IMG/VR virus record: IMGVR_UViG_2579778982_000025
Coordinates: 1 to 20,390 of that record
DNA length: 20,390 bases
Direction: 5' to 3' (one strand)
Source: a virus
Taxonomy: Duplodnaviria > Heunggongvirae > Uroviricota > Caudoviricetes
The notes under the pieces are model-generated. The model did no database searches. It was not told where the DNA came from and saw only the letters and a program-made list of their open reading frames with translations. The position numbers and the translations under genes were made by a program. Positions 3,701 to 16,718 of the stretch are shown here, one piece after another (the first letter of the stretch is position 1; each line of letters begins with the position of its first letter).

Positions 3701-4765
3701 TTACACCTGTGCGACGTTATACCATGTGCCATTGATGTATTTTTGTATTGGCCTGAAGATGGCTTCATCATCGCCATCTACTTCACCAATGATTCTTAAT
3801 CCGGTAATTGCGTGTCCGGCTTTTTCATAACGACCACCACGCGCCATCAATTGAACAACACGTGTGCCAAGTCGGACATCTCTCACATAGCGTGAGTCAA
3901 AATTGCCATAATTGTCGGGAATAACTTGCGCACCACAAAGCCAGTTACCGTTATTATCCATGTACGCCTGACCATCGGTGCCATTGGCTGTCCTTGAGTT
4001 ATTAATCATGTAGATGCCAAATTGCTTGTTCCCCAGTCCACCTATCATGAACTTTCGGTCGGCGTGATTCTGGCGAAGTAACGCCTGAGCGCTATCAGTG
4101 TTAACTATATTTTTCCCAAAGATAGCGTTGTTATCGCGCATCTGAATCCACATACCATTACTGCTGTTAATAGCAAAACGGTCTGAAAGTGTCTCCCCTG
4201 AAACATTAAGACCACGCCCCATCGAAACAGCGCCAGTAGCGTTATTAATCCATAATGGCCTTAATCCGTTATAAGTCCCCATGTTGTCACCGGAGTTTGT
4301 CAACATGAAGTATGTATCTGAACCATCATTACGAATAAAGAATCCGTAATTACCATAAGCAATACGTAGGCCGTTTGCTGATTTTGATATGACTTCGCCA
4401 TTTACAATGGCATTGACAAGAACATACAAAGCATCCCATTTAAGATTCATCAGGTCTTTTGTTGTGGTACTTTGTTTGCTTCTCCATTTGAAATATTCAT
4501 TGCCGTTGTCGCCTGTCTCAAACCACATGTATGAATCAGTGTCACCATCGGCATCATTTTTAAATCCAATCTTCGCCCAGTCAGTATTTCGAATCCAAGC
4601 AAGGATTGAGTCATTTTCAAAAGTAAGCCCACCGGACAAGGTATCGCCATTCTTTTGCACGGCGTTACCAACCCTGTTTACCGTTTCCTGCAAACCGAGG
4701 TTTTTGAGAATTGCCTCTGTGTCGTCTGGACGATATTTTTTTCCGCTTTTAGCAACAATCGCGGT
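3701..4765 (-). CDS. tail fibre protein, alternative variable C-terminal module, fused to a 24-codon remnant of a constant region
   Basis: Minus-strand frame is open from the stop at 4766-4768 down to 3701. Passes through the right crossover site with the same NLGLQETVN codons as the left module. Only 24 codons (TAIVAKSGKKYRPDDTEAILKNLG) lie outside the site. C-terminus ...IQKYINGTWYNVAQV. The ORF-track start at 4693 is a TTG inside the crossover site. Confidence 0.7.
   Translation of the reverse strand, partial: TAIVAKSGKKYRPDDTEAILKNLGLQETVNRVGNAVQKNGDTLSGGLTFENDSILAWIRNTDWAKIGFKNDADGDTDSYMWFETGDNGNEYFKWRSKQSTTTKDLMNLKWDALYVLVNAIVNGEVISKSANGLRIAYGNYGFFIRNDGSDTYFMLTNSGDNMGTYNGLRPLWINNATGAVSMGRGLNVSGETLSDRFAINSSNGMWIQMRDNNAIFGKNIVNTDSAQALLRQNHADRKFMIGGLGNKQFGIYMINNSRTANGTDGQAYMDNNGNWLCGAQVIPDNYGNFDSRYVRDVRLGTRVVQLMARGGRYEKAGHAITGLRIIGEVDGDDEAIFRPIQKYINGTWYNVAQV
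4685..4710. repeat. right inversion crossover site (inverted partner of 1635-1660)
   Basis: Plus strand ttcctgcaaaccgaggtttttgagaa; reverse complement aligns to the left site with 3 mismatches. Confidence 0.8.
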
Positions 4766-4774
4766 TTAGAAAGT

Positions 4775-5329
4775 ATGCAATATGGTTATGCGAGGGTGTC
4801 AACTTTTGACCAGAATTTGGAATTACAACTGGAGGCGCTCAGGAGTTCAGGATGTGACCGGATTTTTGAAGATAAAATATCCGGTGCTAAATCAAAACGA
4901 CCAGGACTTGATAAGCTACTGAAGGTGTTACGTCCGGGCGATACGGTTATTGTCTGGAAGCTGGACCGAATGGGGCGTTCTCTGATTCATCTTGTTGATT
5001 TACTTAACCATTTTTTATCAAACAACATTGAGTTTATTTCGATTACGGAAGGGATAAAAATTAGCACTTCAATTGGCCGCTTTGCCTACACGATGCTGAG
5101 TGCAGTCGCAGAGATGGAGCGGGAAAATATGATTGAAAGAACGCGTGCAGGATTGGCGGTGGCAAGGGCTAACGGCAGGATAGGAGGACGCCGCTCAAAG
5201 CTGGCACCAGAGCAATGGGAACAGATCGGAAGGCTTATTGCGAATGGTGTTTCACGTAAGCGGATAGCGATTATCTTCGATGTTACCTTATCCACGCTTT
5301 ACCGCAGGTTTCCGGCTGGGAATCATTGA
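4775..5329 (+). CDS. serine recombinase (invertase/resolvase family), invertase 2
   Basis: MQYGYARVSTFDQNLELQLEAL...VIVWKLDRMGRS...AVAEMERENMIERT...GGRRSKL...STLYRRFPAG, 184 aa. ATG at 4775; the ORF-track 4655 start is an unsupported N-terminal extension. Candidate promoter TTGCCT (4711-4716) - N17 - TATTTT abuts the right crossover site. Clearly divergent in sequence from invertase 1. Confidence 0.8.
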   Translation: MQYGYARVSTFDQNLELQLEALRSSGCDRIFEDKISGAKSKRPGLDKLLKVLRPGDTVIVWKLDRMGRSLIHLVDLLNHFLSNNIEFISITEGIKISTSIGRFAYTMLSAVAEMERENMIERTRAGLAVARANGRIGGRRSKLAPEQWEQIGRLIANGVSRKRIAIIFDVTLSTLYRRFPAGNH

Positions 5330-5473: not shown

Positions 5474-5511
5474 TTATGATTGTGGGTGTCTGGTTGGAAA
5501 CTGACCAGATA

Positions 5512-5630
5512 TGGAAACAAAAAGCCCGCAGATAAATCTGCGGGCTTCTTGCGACATCCACGGAAAACCAACAACAACAATCCATGGGCGCCTCGACAAC
5601 TCCCATTATACGTTGGTTTTCCGTGGACGC
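5512..5630 (-). ncRNA. candidate CopA-like antisense RNA of the repA leader (IncFII-type copy-number control)
   Basis: Two hairpins in the repA leader. A long stem-loop has a 15-bp stem ccacggaaaaccaac (5558-5572) / gttggttttccgtgg (5612-5626) and a ~39-nt loop. On the minus strand it is followed by aagcccgcaga-ttta-tctgcgggctt (5522-5547) and then a T-run (complement of 5509-5520), a rho-independent terminator oriented for minus-strand transcription. The RNA ends are not mapped. Confidence 0.45.
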
Positions 5631-5642
5631 AAGAGCGAACAT

Positions 5643-6491
5643 ATGGATAGACCAATGCCGTCTCTACGTTCCGCTTACGTTTGTAATTTGTCGCCGGAGT
5701 TCCAGCCTCCAAAGCACCATACGCACAAGCTGCCGCTGGTGTTATCTGATGCTTTACAGCGCATTAATGGGCGTGATCTTACGTGTGAGGTTGCGTTCTA
5801 CGTTAATCAACCGTCAGAGCGGAAGCGCCGGATAAACGAGCATCGTCGTCGGGCGATTAATGCTGTGATCGCTGCGATTTTGCACCATGTAAACATCATT
5901 TCTAAGCGGGTTCTGGCTAGTGCTGAGGCGTTGGCTGATTTTTGCGGCCTGTCTACCGTATCCGAAGCTGGGAACAAGTCTATAACGCGCTGTACAAGGG
6001 CGTTGTCGCAACTGAAAGCGTTAGGGTTTATTGATTATGAACGTCGCTGGGATCGGGTGAATAAACAGTATTGGCCAGCGAAAATAGAGATTCGTGATCA
6101 ACTGCTGGAAACCGTTGGTATTACTGAACAAGCATGGAGACGTGCGGTTAGCCAGAAACTTAATTACTTCAATGCGAAGAATAGCGAACGGCTTAAAAAA
6201 GCGATAACGGAGGCTGATTATAAGCGTATTGTTATTCAGGAGCAGATGGAGAATGTATGGCGTCAGAGGAAGACGGCCAGAGAGATAAAGGCAAAACAGA
6301 AAGCAGCGGAGAGAGCTGCGCGTCTTGTTCGGGAAAAGGGAGAGGCCGAACTTCGTCATCAAATCACTAGAGAGGTTAGCCAGGAATTTGCTGATGGCAT
6401 GTATCCTGGAGCTGACCTTGCATATTTACGATCCCTCGTTGAGCAGCGTTATAACAGGTTAAGAAAGACCTGGAAATCACTCCAACATTAA
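5643..6491 (+). CDS. repA: plasmid replication initiator RepA (IncFII RepA1-like)
   Basis: ...GNKSITRCTRALSQLKALGFIDYERRWD... resembles the R100/R1 RepA1 motif (..KLSITRATRALTFLSELGLITYQ..), with an Arg/Lys-rich C-terminal half. Preceded by antisense-RNA-like hairpins and followed by a DnaA box plus AT-rich region. Start at ATG 5643 (MDRPMPSLRS...) is preferred because the ORF-track start at 5511 lies inside the antisense terminator hairpin. An IncFII-type leader peptide may exist in another frame ending at 5648-5650, but I cannot place its start. Confidence 0.75.
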   Translation: MDRPMPSLRSAYVCNLSPEFQPPKHHTHKLPLVLSDALQRINGRDLTCEVAFYVNQPSERKRRINEHRRRAINAVIAAILHHVNIISKRVLASAEALADFCGLSTVSEAGNKSITRCTRALSQLKALGFIDYERRWDRVNKQYWPAKIEIRDQLLETVGITEQAWRRAVSQKLNYFNAKNSERLKKAITEADYKRIVIQEQMENVWRQRKTAREIKAKQKAAERAARLVREKGEAELRHQITREVSQEFADGMYPGADLAYLRSLVEQRYNRLRKTWKSLQH

Positions 6492-7945: not shown

Positions 7946-7953
7946 GATTGAGC

Positions 7954-8301
7954 ATGTGGACGGTACTTTTTAGCCAGCGATTTGACGACTGGCTAAATGA
8001 GCAAGAAGACGCTCTTCAGGAAAAGGTTTTGGCTGATTTGAAAAAGCTACAGGTTTACGGACCTGAGTTACCCAGGCCATATGCCGATACCGTAAAAGGT
8101 TCTCGGTACAAAAATATGAAAGAGCTTCGCGTTCAGTTTTCTGGCCGTCCGATAAGAGCCTTTTATGCGTTCGATCCGATTCGCCGGGCCATCGTTCTTT
8201 GTGCAGGAGACAAAAGTAACGATAAACGGTTTTATGAAAAACTGGTGCGTATAGCTGAGGATGAGTTTGCAGCACATCTGAACACACTGGAGAGCAAGTA
8301 A
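7954..8301 (+). CDS. higB: type II toxin, RelE/ParE superfamily (HigB-like, phage Gp49-type addiction-module killer)
   Basis: MWTVLFSQRFDDWLNEQEDALQEKVLADLKKLQVYGPELPRPYADTVKGSRYKNMKELRVQFSGRPIRAFYAFDPIRRAIVLCAGDKSNDKRFYEKL.... Toxin-first order. Stop TAA overlaps the ATG of the downstream HTH gene by 1 nt. The ORF-track start 7948 is a TTG; ATG 7954 has the RBS. Confidence 0.7.
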   Translation: MWTVLFSQRFDDWLNEQEDALQEKVLADLKKLQVYGPELPRPYADTVKGSRYKNMKELRVQFSGRPIRAFYAFDPIRRAIVLCAGDKSNDKRFYEKLVRIAEDEFAAHLNTLESK

Positions 8302-8600
8302 TGAGAACATTAGATGAGGTGATTGCCAGCCGTTCACCTGAAAGCCAGGCGCGAATTAAAGAAATGGCAGATGAGATGATTCTTGAGGTCGGCTTGCAGA
8401 TGATGCGTGAAGAACTCCAGTTATCACAAAAACAGGTTGCTGAGGCGATGGGTATAAGCCAGCCAGCAGTAACAAAGCTGGAGCAGCGCGGAAATGATTT
8501 AAAGCTGGCGACGTTAAAACGTTACGTTGAAGCTATGGGAGGCAAATTAAGCCTGGATGTTGAGCTTCCCACAGGAAAGCGAGTAGCGTTCCATGTCTAA
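8301..8600 (+). CDS. higA: type II antitoxin, XRE-family HTH (HigA-like)
   Basis: 99 aa with central HTH (LSQKQVAEAMGISQPAVTKLEQ). Translationally coupled to the upstream toxin gene. Confidence 0.7.
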   Translation: MRTLDEVIASRSPESQARIKEMADEMILEVGLQMMREELQLSQKQVAEAMGISQPAVTKLEQRGNDLKLATLKRYVEAMGGKLSLDVELPTGKRVAFHV

Positions 8601-10543: not shown

Positions 10544-11179
10544 ATGGGGATGCTGGTGGCGTTTATTATTAGCCTGATTTTGTGTTTCTTCGTAGTTCGT
10601 GGTGCATATCGGAAACAATGTGGCCCATCTTCTGGTAGTAAGTTCAAAGCTGTTTTAGTGAGTGGGTTTCTTGGGATTGCTACTTTTGTTGTTGTTAATA
10701 CTCTTGCTGCTGTGGCCTTGATTCCAGAAGACTCCGGCACTACGGCTACTACCGGAGCTGCTTTCGATGGCGTGACCGTAGATAAGTTTAAGCAGCTATA
10801 TAATGATGACCTTGAAGGTATCGCTACATCAGGAAAATCCACCTCCACTATAAGAATTAAGTCAGTTAAACAAGGTAACAACACCGTTGAATTTGCCATC
10901 AATTCATCTGTTAACGGTCGAGCTAGAGTTGATAAGGATGGGAAGATTTCAGAGTTATTATGGCGAGTATCTAAGCCTAGCTCTGATTCCTTGCTTTCTA
11001 TGGCCGTAGCTGTTGAAGTCTTGGATGCATCAAGTGATAGAGACACAGTGATCGCGCAGTTAGAGCAGATTGTTAAATCTGATACGCAGAAAGCTGAGTT
11101 TAAGACTAAGAGAGGCGAGTATTACGTTTCTCGTGACAAATCAGGGCACGTGTCGCTACTGATTACACCGAAATATTAA
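10544..11179 (+). CDS. membrane protein with two predicted N-terminal transmembrane helices, function unknown
   Basis: Strong RBS AAGGAG 7 nt upstream. Hydrophobic segments MLVAFIISLILCFFVV and VLVSGFLGIATFVVVNTLAAVALI, then a Ser/Thr-rich soluble domain. Confidence 0.65.
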   Translation: MGMLVAFIISLILCFFVVRGAYRKQCGPSSGSKFKAVLVSGFLGIATFVVVNTLAAVALIPEDSGTTATTGAAFDGVTVDKFKQLYNDDLEGIATSGKSTSTIRIKSVKQGNNTVEFAINSSVNGRARVDKDGKISELLWRVSKPSSDSLLSMAVAVEVLDASSDRDTVIAQLEQIVKSDTQKAEFKTKRGEYYVSRDKSGHVSLLITPKY

Positions 11180-11188
11180 GAATTGAAG

Positions 11189-11216
11189 AAGCGCCCAAAT
11201 CGGGCGCTTTGTTTTA
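11189..11216. terminator. bidirectional terminator
   Basis: aagcgccc-aaatc-gggcgctt followed by tgtttt, between convergent genes. Confidence 0.6.
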
Positions 11217-12356
11217 TGGTTTTGCACCTGCGGCCAGTTTATCCGCCGATATCTTTATCAGTTCCTGTAGTGTCCTGGCTGGTAGGTTTGCATCCAGTAC
11301 GCTGAGTATGCTGCTGTGATCTGCCTGGTCGACTACTTTGCCTGTCGGTGGTAGTAGCTTGAGCTGAGGATTCAGGTTTTCGTCAAAGCTGATCAGTGCT
11401 CTGGCGTTTCTGAGCAGATCAAGAAGTAAGGCTGATATCACATTTTCCTGAGTCATTGCTGGCAGATTTAGCGCCGCTTTGGTTTTCCCTGTTGCCTTGT
11501 CAAACTCCTTGATTAGTTCCTTCCTGTAGTTCGGTTCCGTTAATAGCCGATTATGCTCTGTTGCCGCGCGGATAATCGTTTTTTCCTGGTACAGTCGTTT
11601 AGCCAGATCACGCTCGTACTGTGTTTTTAACACGCTGCTGATAGCGTTAAAGGCTTCAATGTAGGCCAGCTTGATATCTTTCACGCTTGGACCGTCGATG
11701 CTCTCCATGAGTAAGGTAAATCCGTCTTTTGTCATGCGATAGATTGTTATTTCGCGGTCGCTTCCTTCCAGCGGTCGTTGCTCTTTAAAGAAGTGACGCG
11801 CCGCAGCCGTGCGAGGAATGCGTAGCGCATCGATGGCCATAACGATGGAATTGTTTGTGGTGCTGAATGCCTGGGCAACATCGGCTGAGGTTGTGAGTGG
11901 CTCGTTGTTGCACACTTTAATGTAAAACATCGGTTTGGCGTTGAGCGTATCGACAACCTCACGAGCATTGTTTGGCGAGACGGTAACGGTCGCGGCCGTT
12001 TGCGCGTTCTGGTTGAAGTAGCAGTCTTCCAGCCGTTCGAACACATCCCACGCTTGGTTAGTTTCAAGCATTTTGGCGTGACGTGCAGCCCCGCGTTCGG
12101 TCCAGAGGATTAGTTTTCTAACGTTATTCGCGATGGTTTGAAAATCTCTTAAAGAGATTTTCAAACTTTGGAGATCTGTACCTTTTACAACTATGAAATG
12201 TTTTCCTTCTGTAAACCGGGACTTATTACGGTGGTGATTTCTGTGAAGACATTCGACGCTACAGCCATATAGTTTGGCAAGCAGCTCCGTGGTGATAACG
12301 GGGATCTGGTTATGCAGGATAGGCTGTAGGGTGTTAACGGTCGGAAGCGTTTTCAT
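11214..12356 (-). CDS. phage antirepressor-like protein (ORF6N/Rha-type N-terminal DNA-binding domains, long C-terminal region)
   Basis: 380 aa. N-terminal ...ITTELLAKLYGCSVECLHRNHHRNKSRFTEGKHFIVVKG... resembles ORF6N-type antirepressor domains; a second similar segment ...TTSADVAQAFSTTNNSIVMAIDAL follows. Family assignment is from memory of motifs only. Confidence 0.55.
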   Translation of the reverse strand: MKTLPTVNTLQPILHNQIPVITTELLAKLYGCSVECLHRNHHRNKSRFTEGKHFIVVKGTDLQSLKISLRDFQTIANNVRKLILWTERGAARHAKMLETNQAWDVFERLEDCYFNQNAQTAATVTVSPNNAREVVDTLNAKPMFYIKVCNNEPLTTSADVAQAFSTTNNSIVMAIDALRIPRTAAARHFFKEQRPLEGSDREITIYRMTKDGFTLLMESIDGPSVKDIKLAYIEAFNAISSVLKTQYERDLAKRLYQEKTIIRAATEHNRLLTEPNYRKELIKEFDKATGKTKAALNLPAMTQENVISALLLDLLRNARALISFDENLNPQLKLLPPTGKVVDQADHSSILSVLDANLPARTLQELIKISADKLAAGAKP

Positions 12357-12640
12357 TTTGCACCTCCCATAACTACTTTGGTTACGAGGGAGATTTTTGC
12401 GTCAGAAACAGCGTTATCGTTGCTGGCGATGCGCATAGCTTCGCGCTCGATGATTTCAGCCAGGCGGAATTTATCGGCGTATGAGGCTTTCTTGAGAAGG
12501 ATCTTTACGAGGTTGACGTAATAGTCATGGGGTAAGTTTGTCATGATGATAGTTCCAGTTTTGATATTGGAATAATCACCACCGCTGACGCCAATCAGTG
12601 AGGTGGTGAGACGTACAGGGTTGGCGTAACCGGTCATCAT
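12353..12640 (-). CDS. hypothetical protein
   Basis: Stop overlaps the start of the antirepressor-like gene in an ATGA arrangement, suggesting translational coupling. Start ambiguous between 12640 and an internal ATG (MTNLPHD...). Confidence 0.4.
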   Translation of the reverse strand: MMTGYANPVRLTTSLIGVSGGDYSNIKTGTIIMTNLPHDYYVNLVKILLKKASYADKFRLAEIIEREAMRIASNDNAVSDAKISLVTKVVMGGAK

Positions 12641-12844
12641 GATACCCGGCGAGCCTTACGGCTCCCCCGCACGCCCCACCATAATTCGGGTGTAGCTGTG
12701 CTTTACGCATAAAAAAACCGCTAACGCGGTATGCGCCATGATGATTATCGGGACGCCAATCCCGACCGTAGATTTTGCTACGGCTCGGAAAGTGTCCACC
12801 AATGGCGCATTTATGTCAATACAGCGGGATTTTAACAGACTAAA

Positions 12845-12857
12845 CCACATAGTGTGG
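12845..12857. promoter_or_regulatory. operator-like palindrome CCACA-TAG-TGTGG
   Basis: Same motif class as the cI/cro operators; in the divergent intergenic region 12641-12994. Confidence 0.4.
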
Positions 12858-12883
12858 GTTTGAATGCGGGGCTTTTAATTTTC

Positions 12884-12912
12884 TTGATATGCTAAAAACG
12901 GGAATGTATAGT
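12884..12912 (+). promoter_or_regulatory. sigma70-type promoter for 12995..13534
   Basis: TTGATA (12884-12889) - 17 bp - TATAGT (12907-12912). Confidence 0.5.
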
Positions 12913-12994
12913 TCCTGTAAGGAATCAATTAGTCCTGAGTTATGGTGTTTTGTTAAAGTCGGGAACAAGAAAAAATTCAGTATGGGGATAAAAA

Positions 12995-13534
12995 ATGATT
13001 GAACTGTCAAAAAACTCATGTTTTTCAACCATTCACCTAATGATCATAAAAGAACTTAGGCTAGAAAGAGGTGTGCATCAAGGAGTACTGGCTCAAGCTG
13101 CTGGAAAAACACCAAACGCATGGACAAAGATAGAGAACGGGCAGTCTGTATTAACAGTTGACGCCCTTTTTGGTGCTTTCACAGCCCTTAATATTACTCC
13201 AGTGAATTTCATGTCATTGGTAGAAAATCTTATTCCCGAATTTAACCGTTATGGTTACTTCTTTTTCCCTGGAACAATCAGTCAGGACGAGGATAACCTT
13301 TTACCTCTGATGCTGCGTTACTTTAATAGCAAGGGGTTTGAAGCATTGAGAAATAGGCCATTCGAAAGAGTTAGCATTAGCTCAATGGGATTCTCATTTG
13401 GGGGCGGCATCCCTGTTACTCCAACTGCTGTAATGTATTGTTGCGATGAAGCATATAGAAATTGGGTCGATAACGGTGCTGATGTGGATAATCGAGATTA
13501 TCTGGAGTCATCAACAGGTCGTGGACTGTTTTAA
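12995..13534 (+). CDS. HTH (XRE-like) domain protein with C-terminal domain of unknown function
   Basis: 179 aa. N-terminal LMIIKELRLERGVHQGVLAQAAGKTPNAWTKIENGQSV is HTH-like. RBS GGGGA upstream of ATG 12995. Confidence 0.55.
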   Translation: MIELSKNSCFSTIHLMIIKELRLERGVHQGVLAQAAGKTPNAWTKIENGQSVLTVDALFGAFTALNITPVNFMSLVENLIPEFNRYGYFFFPGTISQDEDNLLPLMLRYFNSKGFEALRNRPFERVSISSMGFSFGGGIPVTPTAVMYCCDEAYRNWVDNGADVDNRDYLESSTGRGLF

Positions 13535-13553
13535 TGAGTGAAGAAACAAAAAA

Positions 13554-13580
13554 ACCGTCCTATTGAGGACGGTCCTTTCG
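13554..13580 (+). terminator. weak rho-independent terminator
   Basis: accgtcc-tattga-ggacggt followed by cctttcg, preceded by an A-run. Confidence 0.35.
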
Positions 13581-13726
13581 TGCTGATCGGATTCGCGGTC
13601 CTTTCAGCATTACGTTGTTGTATAAACAACCACGCAAGCACAAGCAGCAAATTGATTTTACTCAAAAGGTAATAATAGTCCACTATTATACATCAAAAAA
13701 TTGTGGTTCTTGTTGTGTCAGCAAAC

Positions 13727-13739
13727 TCACAGATTGTGG
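13727..13739. promoter_or_regulatory. operator-like palindrome TCACA-GAT-TGTGG
   Basis: Same motif class; flanking aaactcac matches the site at 16685. Confidence 0.35.
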
Positions 13740-13971
13740 GTAGGTTACTGATTTTGTGAAAATAAACTGTTTTTTTCGTTTAATTTCTTTCCTATTACTA
13801 ATCTTAAAATAATCGTAAAATACCTGTGGACCTTCCCGCCGATTCGCACCCGGGCACCGACTTTAGGGGAGGATTTCCTGTTGCCGTACATGCAAGCACA
13901 AGCAGCCGTGCTTGCTCTCGCGTTGTTTTCGTCGGTGGGGATGTCGTGAAACGGCCTGTAAGGGCCACACA

Positions 13972-14094
13972 ATGAAAAAATACTACATGTGTATTTTTAT
14001 CGTTGTTACTGGAGCTTTGTTTACGCCACATGGGGAGGGTTGGAAGATTACTGATAACGCTCTGAATGTGACGATAAACATTAGCAGCAAGTAG
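13972..14094 (+). CDS. small hydrophobic peptide (40 aa), candidate small membrane protein or type I toxin
   Basis: MKKYYMCIFIVVTGALFTPHGEGWKITDNALNVTINISSK. RBS AGGG 7 nt upstream. Strong terminator immediately downstream. Confidence 0.4.
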   Translation: MKKYYMCIFIVVTGALFTPHGEGWKITDNALNVTINISSK

Positions 14095-14099
14095 CGATT

Positions 14100-14123
14100 A
14101 GGCCCCTTCGGGGGCCTTTTTTA
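14100..14123 (+). terminator. rho-independent terminator
   Basis: aggcccc-ttcg-ggggcct followed by tttttta. Confidence 0.7.
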
Positions 14124-15440: not shown

Positions 15441-15815
15441 TCAGAGGTCAGCTATCGTTGATATCAGTTGATTTGCTAGCTGTCGCTGTTTACGTGAGAG
15501 GGTTAGAGCAGCTTCTGAGCGGTCGCTAAGAGGGGTGTTTTCATCAAGAATCATGAGGCATACAGAAATAATAGCCCTGTTATATGCCATCAATGGCTGG
15601 CACAGCTTCGATACCGCTGGCACATCGTATTGTAAGGCCGTTTTGAGGCAGACTTTTTGTTCTGATGCCAGATGAAGGATAGATTCTATCCAGTCGATAT
15701 CTTTCTCATTATCAATGATTTGGCATAACATACACTCAATCGCTATGTTCAACGCTTGGATTTCGATTCCAGCAGTGATCAGAGTTTCGTTTTTATTGGC
15801 TGTATGTAATTCCAT
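15441..15815 (-). CDS. hypothetical protein encoded downstream of and co-oriented with the repressor gene
   Basis: 124-aa ORF with RBS AGAGG; no motif recognised. An operator-like palindrome lies just upstream. Confidence 0.5.
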   Translation of the reverse strand: MELHTANKNETLITAGIEIQALNIAIECMLCQIIDNEKDIDWIESILHLASEQKVCLKTALQYDVPAVSKLCQPLMAYNRAIISVCLMILDENTPLSDRSEAALTLSRKQRQLANQLISTIADL

Positions 15816-15851: not shown

Positions 15852-15864
15852 CCACAAAATGTGG
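15852..15864. promoter_or_regulatory. operator-like palindrome CCACA-AAA-TGTGG
   Basis: Perfect inverted repeat within aaaccacaaaatgtggttttttt, between the repressor gene and 15441..15815. Confidence 0.45.
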
Positions 15865-15907: not shown

Positions 15908-16564
15908 TCATAACCAGTTGACAACACTAACTACGCGGCCAAGAACTTTATAACGCTTAAATTCCTCGTTATTCAGATGATTAGTGTTCATTTCAGCGTC
16001 CCTTTCGGTTGACAGCATAACAGCATTGTCACCCGGTATGACTCTACAGTGCCTCAAAACAACCAGGCCATTTCTGTCTTCAAGGGCATAGATCCCCTCA
16101 TGAATCTCTGTATCGTCTGTATCAATCAGGACTTGGGAGCCAGGGGATATTGTTGGTGACATTAACTCATCGTTGCTCTGGAGAACTGACAGAGACGATG
16201 GGTTGATGTTCTTGCTTCGTAGAATCTCCTGTTCTATCGCCAGCACTGGCTTTTCTCCGGCGTGCGATGCTATGTCATTTTTTATAGCTACAAGCCCAGG
16301 AATAACAGGAGCGTTAGTATTCTGGGGTGGGAACGGGTTATCTGTTAAGCACGCGATATAAGGCGCTGATGCTTTCAGGGCGTGCGCGATTTTCTTGATG
16401 GCAGGTATAGATGGTTGTCTTAATCCGGCCTCATAGTTCTGCAAGGTGCTTAAGCCTATTCCAGTGACTTGCTGGAGATCTCCGGCAGTCATGCCGGATT
16501 GTTTCCGTAGAGTCTGAATGCGCAGACCTATTTCTTTCTTGATGTTCTCGTCGTTGCTTTTCAT
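15908..16564 (-). CDS. CI/LexA-like phage repressor (N-terminal HTH, C-terminal S24 peptidase-like autocleavage domain)
   Basis: 218 aa. N-terminal HTH (LRKQSGMTAGDLQQVTGIGLSTLQNYEAG). C-terminal region with MSPTISPGSQVLIDT and KVLGRVVSVV resembles the Ser/Lys dyad regions of LexA and lambda CI. Divergent from a Cro-like gene, with operators between. Confidence 0.8.
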   Translation of the reverse strand: MKSNDENIKKEIGLRIQTLRKQSGMTAGDLQQVTGIGLSTLQNYEAGLRQPSIPAIKKIAHALKASAPYIACLTDNPFPPQNTNAPVIPGLVAIKNDIASHAGEKPVLAIEQEILRSKNINPSSLSVLQSNDELMSPTISPGSQVLIDTDDTEIHEGIYALEDRNGLVVLRHCRVIPGDNAVMLSTERDAEMNTNHLNNEEFKRYKVLGRVVSVVNWL

Positions 16565-16602: not shown

Positions 16603-16718
16603 CCACATTTAGTGGTTTTCACATGGTAAGACGAGAGGTGGACCACAAATAGAAGGTTATTTTTTGTTTCGCCCATTGAAAAACTCACGATATGTGGTTT
16701 TAATACCACATATCGTGG
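16603..16718. promoter_or_regulatory. immunity-region operators and PR-like promoter
   Basis: Operator-like sites CCACA-TTT-AGTGG (16603-16615), TCACG-ATA-TGTGG (16685-16697) and CCACA-TAT-CGTGG (16706-16718). The last two are inverted copies of each other, 21 bp centre to centre. They bracket a strong promoter TTGAAA (16676-16681) - 17 bp - TTTAAT (16699-16704) reading into the Cro-like gene. Confidence 0.6.

Follow-up and report, generated by a model that had tools for sequence, protein, structure and literature searches.

We analysed a 20,390-nucleotide (nt) stretch of viral DNA (Caudoviricetes; positions 1 to 20,390 of the IMG/VR record IMGVR_UViG_2579778982_000025), referred to below as the window, and describe here the region of its minus strand that contains ant, a gene for an antirepressor-like protein of 380 amino acids (aa). 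Along that strand the region consists of a putative operator for the CI-like repressor of the element, tandem promoters, an IsrK-like leader RNA that carries the target sites a1 and b1 and ends in a terminator, a c4-type antisense RNA, the second target sites a2 and b2, a small gene named orf63, and ant (Table 1). The IsrK-like and C4 RNAs fill most of 12599..12797, a stretch between the open reading frame (ORF) upstream of ant and the palindrome. An earlier sequence-only reading of this DNA had missed both RNA genes and treated the stretch as a promoter or untranslated region. The locus is probably an RNA-controlled antirepressor operon, of the secondary-immunity (immI) type, belonging to a circular phage-plasmid of about 49 kb with myovirus-type relatives. 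The operon is a mosaic member of the known phage P1 immI and Gifsy-1 isrK-anrP kind, well supported and modestly novel.

The window is 96.6% identical to the Yersinia phage vB_YpM_41 across 11233-13600 and about 93% identical to non-mobilizable plasmids of 48-50 kb from Escherichia coli (ATCC 25922 among them) and E. albertii, and further plasmid records matching the window come from Salmonella and Klebsiella. The phage-plasmid family is common in E. coli, Salmonella, E. albertii and Yersinia, and the antirepressor module is conserved across it. A literature search returned nothing specific describing this family.

Table 1 Features of the ant locus and of the genes discussed with it, in window coordinates.
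Feature	Position	Strand	Description
CI-like repressor gene (cI)	15908..16564	-	product presumed to bind the palindrome and to be the target of Ant; phrog_4 transcriptional repressor
HTH gene	12995..13534	+	179-aa XRE-type helix-turn-helix (HTH) protein, divergent from the ant operon; C-terminal 110 aa match no family
Palindrome	12845..12857	.	CCACAtagTGTGG (extended AAACCACAnnnTGTGGGTTT), over the -35/spacer region of candidate upstream promoter P2
Candidate promoter P2	12829..12837	-	extended -10 TGTTAAAAT; the -35 zone is the palindrome
Promoter P1 (predicted)	12791..12819	-	-35 TTGACA at 12819..12814, 17-nt spacer, -10 GACACT at 12796..12791; start near 12784
IsrK-like leader RNA	12711..12797	-	carries the upstream c4 target sites a1 and b1; ends in an intrinsic terminator
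a1	12759..12753	-	UUGGCGU, loop of the second isrK hairpin, complements a'
b1	12744..12737	-	UCAUCAUG, within the isrK element, complements b'
c4-type antisense RNA	12599..12686	-	Rfam C4 (RF01695), 81 bits (cut-off 45), full length 1-87
b'	12642..12634	-	UCAUGAUGA, loop of c4 hairpin 2
a'	12627..12621	-	ACGCCAA, single-stranded c4 segment after hairpin 2
Downstream c4 target region (a2 and b2)	12541..12594	-	directly after c4
a2	12594..12588	-	UUGGCGU, loop of a small hairpin, 7-nt complement with a'
b2	12549..12541	-	UCAUCAUGA, perfect 9-nt complement with b'
orf63	12353..12544	-	63 aa, phrog_7886 (63 of 63 positions), in the position of phage P1 icd
ant	11214..12356	-	380 aa, ORF6N, Rha and helical C-terminal part, putative antirepressor
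GC-rich hairpin	11188..11210	.	between the convergent ant and membrane-protein genes; terminator-like on the plus strand
Convergent ORF	10544..11179	+	211 aa, two N-terminal hydrophobic segments, phrog_23465

Leader RNAs and their target sites

The first leader RNA matched Rfam isrK (RF01394) with 70.9 bits (curated cut-off 50) at 12784..12711, and a terminator scan placed the hairpin of its terminator at 12730..12717, followed by a U run to 12711. The family c4-a1b1 (RF03163, 'a1, b1 targets of C4') overlaps this match at 12797..12745 and was detected at a relaxed threshold, with 41 bits, below its cut-off of 46.7. The second RNA, c4, folds into a long closing stem around two hairpins, with a 12-nt loop and an 8-nt single-stranded segment, and its minimum-free-energy fold (-47.5 kcal/mol, z = -5.26) agrees with the Rfam consensus.

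The target sites were read by comparing the minus strand with the annotated immI region of phage P1 and with Gifsy-1. Each antisense segment of c4 has one upstream and one downstream perfect complement of 7-9 nt. The AUG at 12544..12542, which lies inside b2, is the start codon of orf63 and at the same time codon 33 of the 95-codon frame that had been taken as the upstream gene. In the minimum-free-energy fold of the whole leader, b' pairs with b2 in cis and the AUG of orf63 is buried. The sequence-only reading had suggested a repressor-controlled antirepressor module; the antirepressor type was retained and the operator is plausible, but the main control of the operon is, judging from these predicted RNAs, exerted by c4 together with an IsrK-like decoy leader rather than by a repressor and its operator.

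Comparisons between c4 leaders showed that the pairings covary. Viral contigs were scanned with the conserved 5' end of c4, which gave more than 119 loci and 76 unique leaders, 54 of them parsed automatically, and 25 distinct (a', b') combinations were present among the parsed leaders. The cognate a'-a1 and a'-a2 complements always reached at least 7 nt at fixed positions, whereas only 0-2% of non-cognate pairs reached 7 nt. The complements of b' had mean lengths of 7.1 nt with b1 and 7.9 nt with b2, compared with 4.2 and 4.8 nt for non-cognate pairs. Within the phage-plasmid family there are at least five specificity types, and a1, a2, b1 and b2 change to match in each. These types (a' / b') are ACGCCAA / AUCAUGAUGA, which is that of the window, ACGCCAA / UCAUUGUG, GUUCCAA / UCAUUGUGU, GUUCCAA / CCAUGGUGA and AGGCUAA / UCAUUGUGU. 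The same AUG of orf63 is spanned by b2 in every family type (AUCAUCAUGAC, AUCACAAUGAC or AUCACCAUGAC).

The leader of ant, with its five or more c4 specificities, is about 92-94% identical across the family. The cI gene and its operator region are 97-99.7% identical in all 58 plasmids having them, a near-identity that left no signal obtainable for covariation between operator and repressor. A constant primary repressor combined with a diversified antisense RNA is the basis of heteroimmunity between phages P1 and P7. Since c4 would act in trans and its specificity varies among CI-identical relatives, we propose that the module also sets heteroimmunity within the family. At least five natural, orthogonal c4/target specificities on a near-identical backbone make these phage-plasmids a convenient system for studying the evolution of antisense-RNA heteroimmunity, as well as the role of the 63-aa protein.

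The orf63 gene upstream of ant

The upstream partner of ant had been read as a 95-aa ORF coupled to it by an ATGA overlap. The overlap stood: the stop codon of orf63 and the start codon of ant share ATGA at 12356..12353, a geometry that would suit translational coupling, and the 4-nt overlap is kept in 19 of the 20 loci carrying orf63. The length did not stand. The 95-codon open frame extends over 12353..12640 on the minus strand, and its residues 33-95 are a conserved gene of 63 aa. We found 39 homologues of these residues, all in Enterobacterales, and for most of them the called length was exactly 63 aa, even at identities as low as 67%. Substitutions at the first, second and third codon positions of orf63 numbered 6/3/25 (against L128) and 15/9/31 in divergent members, and this excess at the third position supports that orf63 is a real coding gene. 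A profile search for remote relatives among 1.84 billion representative proteins returned only six clusters, all of the same family, and a scan of species-representative genomes returned only two loci. BLASTP comparison of orf63 with Icd of phage P1 gave no alignment at E <= 100.

The remaining 32 codons of the long frame are leader and c4 RNA sequence that is not conserved as coding, and the 95-aa ORF was rejected as the real gene. Codons 1-14 lie inside the C4 gene, and the loop of c4 hairpin 2 contains the ATG of Met1. Of 8 close relatives, only the 3 with the c4 type of the window keep the extension open; the others have stops 10-15 codons upstream, and the AUG is absent from their c4 loop. 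The sole Pfam match of the 95-aa form was Phage_ASH (26.1 bits, cut-off 26), which covers aa 2-39 and profile positions 64-102 of 107 and is thus confined to the leader-derived part, namely the 3' part of c4, a2 and the spacer. These data bear on an alternative in which translation starts at the AUG in the c4 loop and the 95-aa ORF yields a true 'Ash family' protein, so that the leader has a dual function like orf45 of Gifsy-1 and the long form drives coupling. The frame is indeed open from 12640, the Phage_ASH score just passes its cut-off, one relative is called 'ash family protein' by RefSeq, and in Gifsy-1 anrP expression depends on a translated ORF that begins within the c4-like region. 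The restricted occurrence of the extension, the homologues called at 63 aa and the confinement of the Phage_ASH match all argue against it, as does the covariation of b2 around the AUG of Met33; moreover, the AUG in the 5' stem of c4 equivalent to that of Gifsy-1 (AUGGUGGGG...) meets a UAA here after 8 codons. We therefore regard a translated Ash protein as highly improbable and retain orf63 as the upstream gene.

Calls of 'ash family protein' or Phage_ASH were also seen on the C4 gene and a2/b2 in other records, such as locus L002 (4884-5171) and phage vB_EcoP_ZX5 (H89), in addition to 12545-12640 (minus strand) of the window. At least the C-terminal part of the ash protein family may thus be built from translated RNA genes, and an 'ash family protein' call can represent a translated c4 RNA gene together with the adjoining leader.

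Gene-context analysis showed that both sides of orf63 vary. The genes behind it encode ORF6N-Rha proteins (380-403 aa), a short ORF6N protein (199 aa), P22_AR_N antirepressors (178-247 aa) and others, and the RNA ahead of it is either isrK with C4 or a member of the sRNA-Xcc1 family, with the exception of L130, which had no Rfam match. Among c4-led modules in viral contigs, the order of orf63 followed by an ORF6N-Rha gene was found in this phage-plasmid family only. Other c4-led classes lead directly into an AnrP-like gene, into icd of phage P1 or into a 76-aa ORF. In the last of these classes (L088 and 24 other viral-contig loci), the conserved 76-aa ORF, beginning MANRKQ, comes next in place of icd, orf63 or an antirepressor gene.

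Ant, the CI-like repressor and the operator motif

The 380-aa antirepressor-like ORF of the sequence-only reading was confirmed, and the domain search that it had called for on both proteins, which yielded only the leader-derived Phage_ASH match for the 95-aa form, identified two domains in Ant: ORF6N at aa 12-96 (E 5e-18) and Phage_pRha at aa 155-239 (E 1.6e-12). Ant matched phrog_8244 over its full length and nine 'anti-repressor' PHROG families over aa 6-155, with E-values down to 7e-54. Residues 1-153 are 49% identical to AnrP of Gifsy-1 (E 1e-45), and the other 227 residues have no counterpart in AnrP. Full-length relatives (at least 81% identity) were found on contigs of 45-50 kb. A BLASTP comparison with Ant1/Ant2 of phage P1 gave a best E-value of 5.0, so the proteins are unrelated. 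It is plausible that Ant antagonises the CI-like repressor and offers an antirepressor route to induction.

Nearly all of the variation in Ant within the family falls in aa 32-80 of the ORF6N domain, and the remainder is almost invariant; this segment is either a recombination patch or a specificity region. In several family plasmids ant is split, truncated or unannotated (L131 513-1658, L133, L134 382-1098 and L143), with orf63 and the RNA leader intact, which suggests repeated loss of the antirepressor in the family.

The palindrome upstream of the promoters belongs to a motif, CCACA-N3-TGTGG, that occurs five times in the window with at most one mismatch, against 0.43 copies expected; none of 100 shuffled sequences reached five. 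Besides the copy at 12845, copies of the form (A)AACCACAnnnTGTGGTTT are located at 13727-13739, 15852-15864, 16603-16615 and 16706-16718, and a sixth, weaker copy with two mismatches is located at 16685-16697. The copies at 16603, 16685 and 16706 fall between the CI-like gene and the first early gene, in a gap of 173 bp where two of the three flank a promoter-like TTGAAA...TTTAAT. Because the motif recurs in this gap, the palindrome at 12845 is probably a CI operator. The copy at 15852 lies just downstream of cI and ahead of a 124-aa ORF (15441..15815), and that at 13727 lies upstream of ryfA; together the copies outline a putative CI regulon.

The palindrome is conserved in all eight aligned family leaders. 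In relatives that lack the HTH gene it keeps a fixed spacing to TGTTAAAAT and TTGACAT, and it therefore belongs to the ant operon. The element of candidate promoter P2 is likewise invariant in the eight leaders and lies at a fixed distance in L138-L145. Promoter P1 is invariant in the family and aligns position for position with the promoter-like element of Gifsy-1 (TTGACA-17-TATATT) that directly precedes isrK. An operator-like palindrome in a divergent region had been noted from the sequence; the palindrome was upheld, whereas the divergent HTH gene was dismissed as a partner of the operon. That gene is a variable insertion, absent from several relatives in which the palindrome and promoters persist; in these, ryfA lies about 370 nt from isrK, and ATCC 25922 has a different upstream region of the HTH gene. 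The palindrome had also been listed by the terminator scan of the minus strand, and was rejected as an intrinsic terminator for its 5-bp stem and poor U tract.

The CI-like repressor matched HTH_3 (4.5e-11) and, weakly and below the cut-off, Peptidase_S24 (19.4 bits). No lysine occurs between residues 119 and 202 of the protein, which makes a canonical Ser-Lys self-cleavage dyad unlikely; the repressor may escape cleavage and rely for induction on an antirepressor. A MAFFT alignment of its C-terminus with LexA and lambda CI left the catalytic Ser ambiguous and was not relied on, and a sequence search of solved structures matched HTH domains only, with the C-terminal half unmatched. A search for LexA boxes found no perfect CTGT-N8-ACAG and no box close to the ant promoters, and the number of boxes did not exceed that expected by chance, so that SOS control via LexA is unsupported.

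Several results weigh against the assignment of the locus as an RNA-controlled antirepressor operon. Neither of the minus-strand promoters passed a consensus promoter scan, the -10 element of promoter P1 is weak (3 of 6 consensus positions), and the palindrome does not overlap promoter P1, the better supported of the two. As no similarity is detectable between orf63 and Icd or between Ant and Ant1/2, the parallel with phage P1 lies in the RNA part and the gene order. Since ant is truncated or split in several members, it is dispensable for maintenance. The AlphaFold2 model of Ant, built on a 12-sequence alignment, was unusable, with a mean predicted local distance difference test score (pLDDT) of 39, and a fold search was therefore not done. 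In addition, both domains of Ant have DNA-binding-type folds, and the authors of the Gifsy-1 study suggest that AnrP may activate transcription (PMC4825925).

The last two points are in line with an alternative in which the RNA control is as described, but Ant is a DNA-binding factor that activates lytic promoters or competes with CI at the DNA. ORF6N (KilA-N-like) and Rha would supply such binding, the middle part of Ant matches 'Rha-like transcriptional regulator' PHROGs, and the Pfam domains found in Ant do not include a repressor-binding domain like those of P22 Ant or KilAC. This alternative is rather unlikely in our view, given the nine anti-repressor PHROG families matched by the N-terminal domain, the position of Ant in the slot that bona fide antirepressors occupy in phage P1, the P22_AR_N proteins in the same slot of sister loci, and a CI-like repressor apparently without a catalytic lysine, whose induction would depend on a protein antagonist. 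An antagonist of the CI-like repressor is the reading of Ant that we prefer.

The operator motif and the family-wide conservation also bear on the possibility that the cassette is accessory (a moron or defence module) and has no connection with the lysis-lysogeny switch of the element, serving, for example, in the exclusion of other phages. The adjoining slots do hold cargo that varies, namely the 211-aa membrane protein, the HTH gene and ryfA, the ORF6N domain gave weak PADLOC matches of 20-22 bits to the candidate system PDC-S05, and some relatives carry a degraded ant. These PADLOC scores, however, are marginal, and the PADLOC and NCBIfam scans of orf63, of Ant and its neighbours and of the HTH protein returned marginal matches only. 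The putative operator motif of the element's own CI stands at the module promoter, the module is present across the family, and c4 specificity diversifies as immunity determinants do. An accessory role can hardly be credited, and the term 'moron', offered in the sequence-only reading, gave way to a regulatory cassette of known type.

Downstream, the predicted convergence of ant with a membrane protein gene was borne out, with a 211-aa ORF on the plus strand and a hairpin between the two genes. On the minus strand the stem of this hairpin is followed by UUCAAUUCUU, a weaker U tract, and the hairpin is likely the end of both convergent transcripts. The 211-aa protein was found only in the window and in one other fetched relative (pOkiPb01714_2); others have a 62-aa ORF there, and the position looks like a cargo slot.

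An RNA of the ryfA family (Rfam RF00126, 144.7 bits, cut-off 80) is located at 13826-14122 (plus strand) of the window, at 594-890 of L139 and in L145 and L146. Its place beside the ant operon is conserved in relatives, and about 90-100 nt ahead of it stands a CI-type palindrome (13727 in the window, 977 in L139). Loci of ryfA encode type I toxin-antitoxin systems (TimP/TimR in Salmonella), and with the CI-type palindrome upstream this RNA could be a CI-linked addiction or stress module.

The backbone genes of the window encode an IncFII-type RepA, ParA, a Hin-type invertase, a HigB/HigA-like pair and the CI-like repressor, which faces the early operon. Three spans, all on the plus strand, are those of an ordinary plasmid-prophage: 7948-8600 with a Gp49/HigB-like toxin and HTH antitoxin, 5511-6491 with RepA, and 4655-5329 with the invertase, near tail-fibre-like genes.

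The proposed switch and its relation to known systems

We propose a switch in which CI, bound at the palindrome, would limit transcription from the upstream promoter. Transcripts ending at the leader terminator would constitute a short IsrK-like RNA, and read-through transcripts would contain c4. Either in cis or once processed, a step carried out by RNase P in phage P1, c4 would expose a' and b' for pairing with a2 and b2, and the pairing of b' over the AUG in b2 would block initiation of orf63. With ant starting within the stop codon of orf63 and without independent access, no Ant would be made when orf63 is untranslated, and this silencing would probably be reinforced by Rho-dependent polarity, as in phage P1. 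The IsrK-like RNA, as a second copy of both target sites, may titrate c4 and thereby turn translation on, comparable to IsrK in Gifsy-1. Ant, once made, is expected to inactivate the CI-like repressor and so lead to lytic growth of the prophage-plasmid. Acting in trans, c4 would be a heteroimmunity determinant between co-infecting family members, as for phages P1 and P7.

The arrangement closely follows immI of phages P1 and P7, in which Oc4, P2c4, P1c4, a1, b1, c4, a2, b2, icd and ant1 are annotated in the same order in phage P1. The RNA family is the same (C4 and c4-a1b1), pairs of target sites flank c4, and the stop codon of a small ORF overlaps the start codon of ant by 4 nt. Phage P1 has a repressor operator (Op51/Oc4) ahead of tandem promoters (P51a/b), and the window has a putative operator and candidate promoters in a matching arrangement, with -10 elements spaced by about 38-40 nt. 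As in P1/P7, the a'/b' specificity diversifies on a constant primary repressor. The differences are that b2 lies on the AUG itself here and on the Shine-Dalgarno sequence in phage P1, that ant is followed by a hairpin and not by kilA-repL, and that the repressor here, an HTH protein resembling lambda CI, has putative operators that are palindromic, whereas phage P1 has C1 with asymmetric 17-mers.

The isrK-orf45-anrP locus of Gifsy-1 is the experimentally best-studied relative. There, IsrK supplied in trans raises anrP translation about 140-fold and the coupled upstream ORF is required, AnrP expression raises transcription of the antQ operon and induces the Gifsy-1 prophage, and the region assigned to C4 by Rfam gives rise to a processed RNA of about 80 nt, STnc1160 (PMC4825925). 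The two loci share an IsrK RNA with a terminator (read-through here is predicted), an identical a' sequence (ACGCCAA / UUGGCGU), an AnrP-like ORF6N N-terminal domain and AUGA coupling to an upstream ORF. In Gifsy-1, however, the c4-like region is itself translated as the coupled orf45 and b2 lies directly against the Shine-Dalgarno sequence of anrP, whereas here a separate conserved 63-aa gene, unrelated to orf45, is interposed. Ant is twice the length of AnrP, with the Rha and C-terminal parts added. Upstream there is an HTH gene or ryfA in place of antQ (a Q gene), the isrJ RNA that Gifsy-1 has downstream gave no match in the window at Rfam gathering thresholds, and the host element is a plasmid-prophage and not an integrated lambdoid prophage.

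Antisense-RNA-controlled anti-immunity is also present in P4 (CI RNA) and N15 (CA RNA), where a small RNA processed from the leader of the operon under its control pairs with sites on either side of itself. Unlike the c4 type, these RNAs are described as acting by transcription termination. The comparison with P4 was drawn by the Gifsy-1 authors, and phage P1 c4 goes unmentioned in their paper (Hershko-Shalev et al. 2016, PMC4825925). The c4/a1b1 targets of phage P1 and the IsrK/STnc1160 RNAs of Salmonella are one device described under different names in two literatures, which are now linked. What had been annotated, uninformatively, as an 'ORF6N domain protein', a 'hypothetical/ash family protein' and intergenic DNA without annotation can now be read as a switch.

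More tentatively, orf63 may do more than couple translation and be a portable partner conserved as a protein, for example an Icd-like host effector or a cofactor of Ant, that travels with C4 and sRNA-Xcc1 leaders and has at least four types of antirepressor exchanged behind it, with b2 shifted onto the start codon and at least five specificities on an invariant CI. If this possibility, which we hold to be the less probable one, is true and CI lacks a catalytic lysine, the RNA-gated Ant would be the only induction route as well as the heteroimmunity determinant within the family. Three features deserve to be retained: a leader protein of 63 aa that is conserved, a b2 site centred on the start codon, and a set of c4 specificities that occurs naturally against one CI background.

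The closest parallels to orf63 itself are found in modules led by sRNA-Xcc1 (Rfam RF02221) in Erwinia, Yersinia and other prophages, in which orf63 is 67-75% identical and the ATGA junction is the same. These modules differ from that of the window in their leader RNA, in carrying a P22_AR_N antirepressor and in having b2 on the Shine-Dalgarno sequence. The sRNA-Xcc1 RNAs occupy the exact place of c4 before orf63 (L124 3376-3460, L126, L137 and L147-L150). The RNA of L124 has a c4-like topology with matching upstream and downstream sites, CUAGAAA and UUCACG, identified by eye, and sRNA-Xcc1 may represent a second RNA scaffold for this antisense device.

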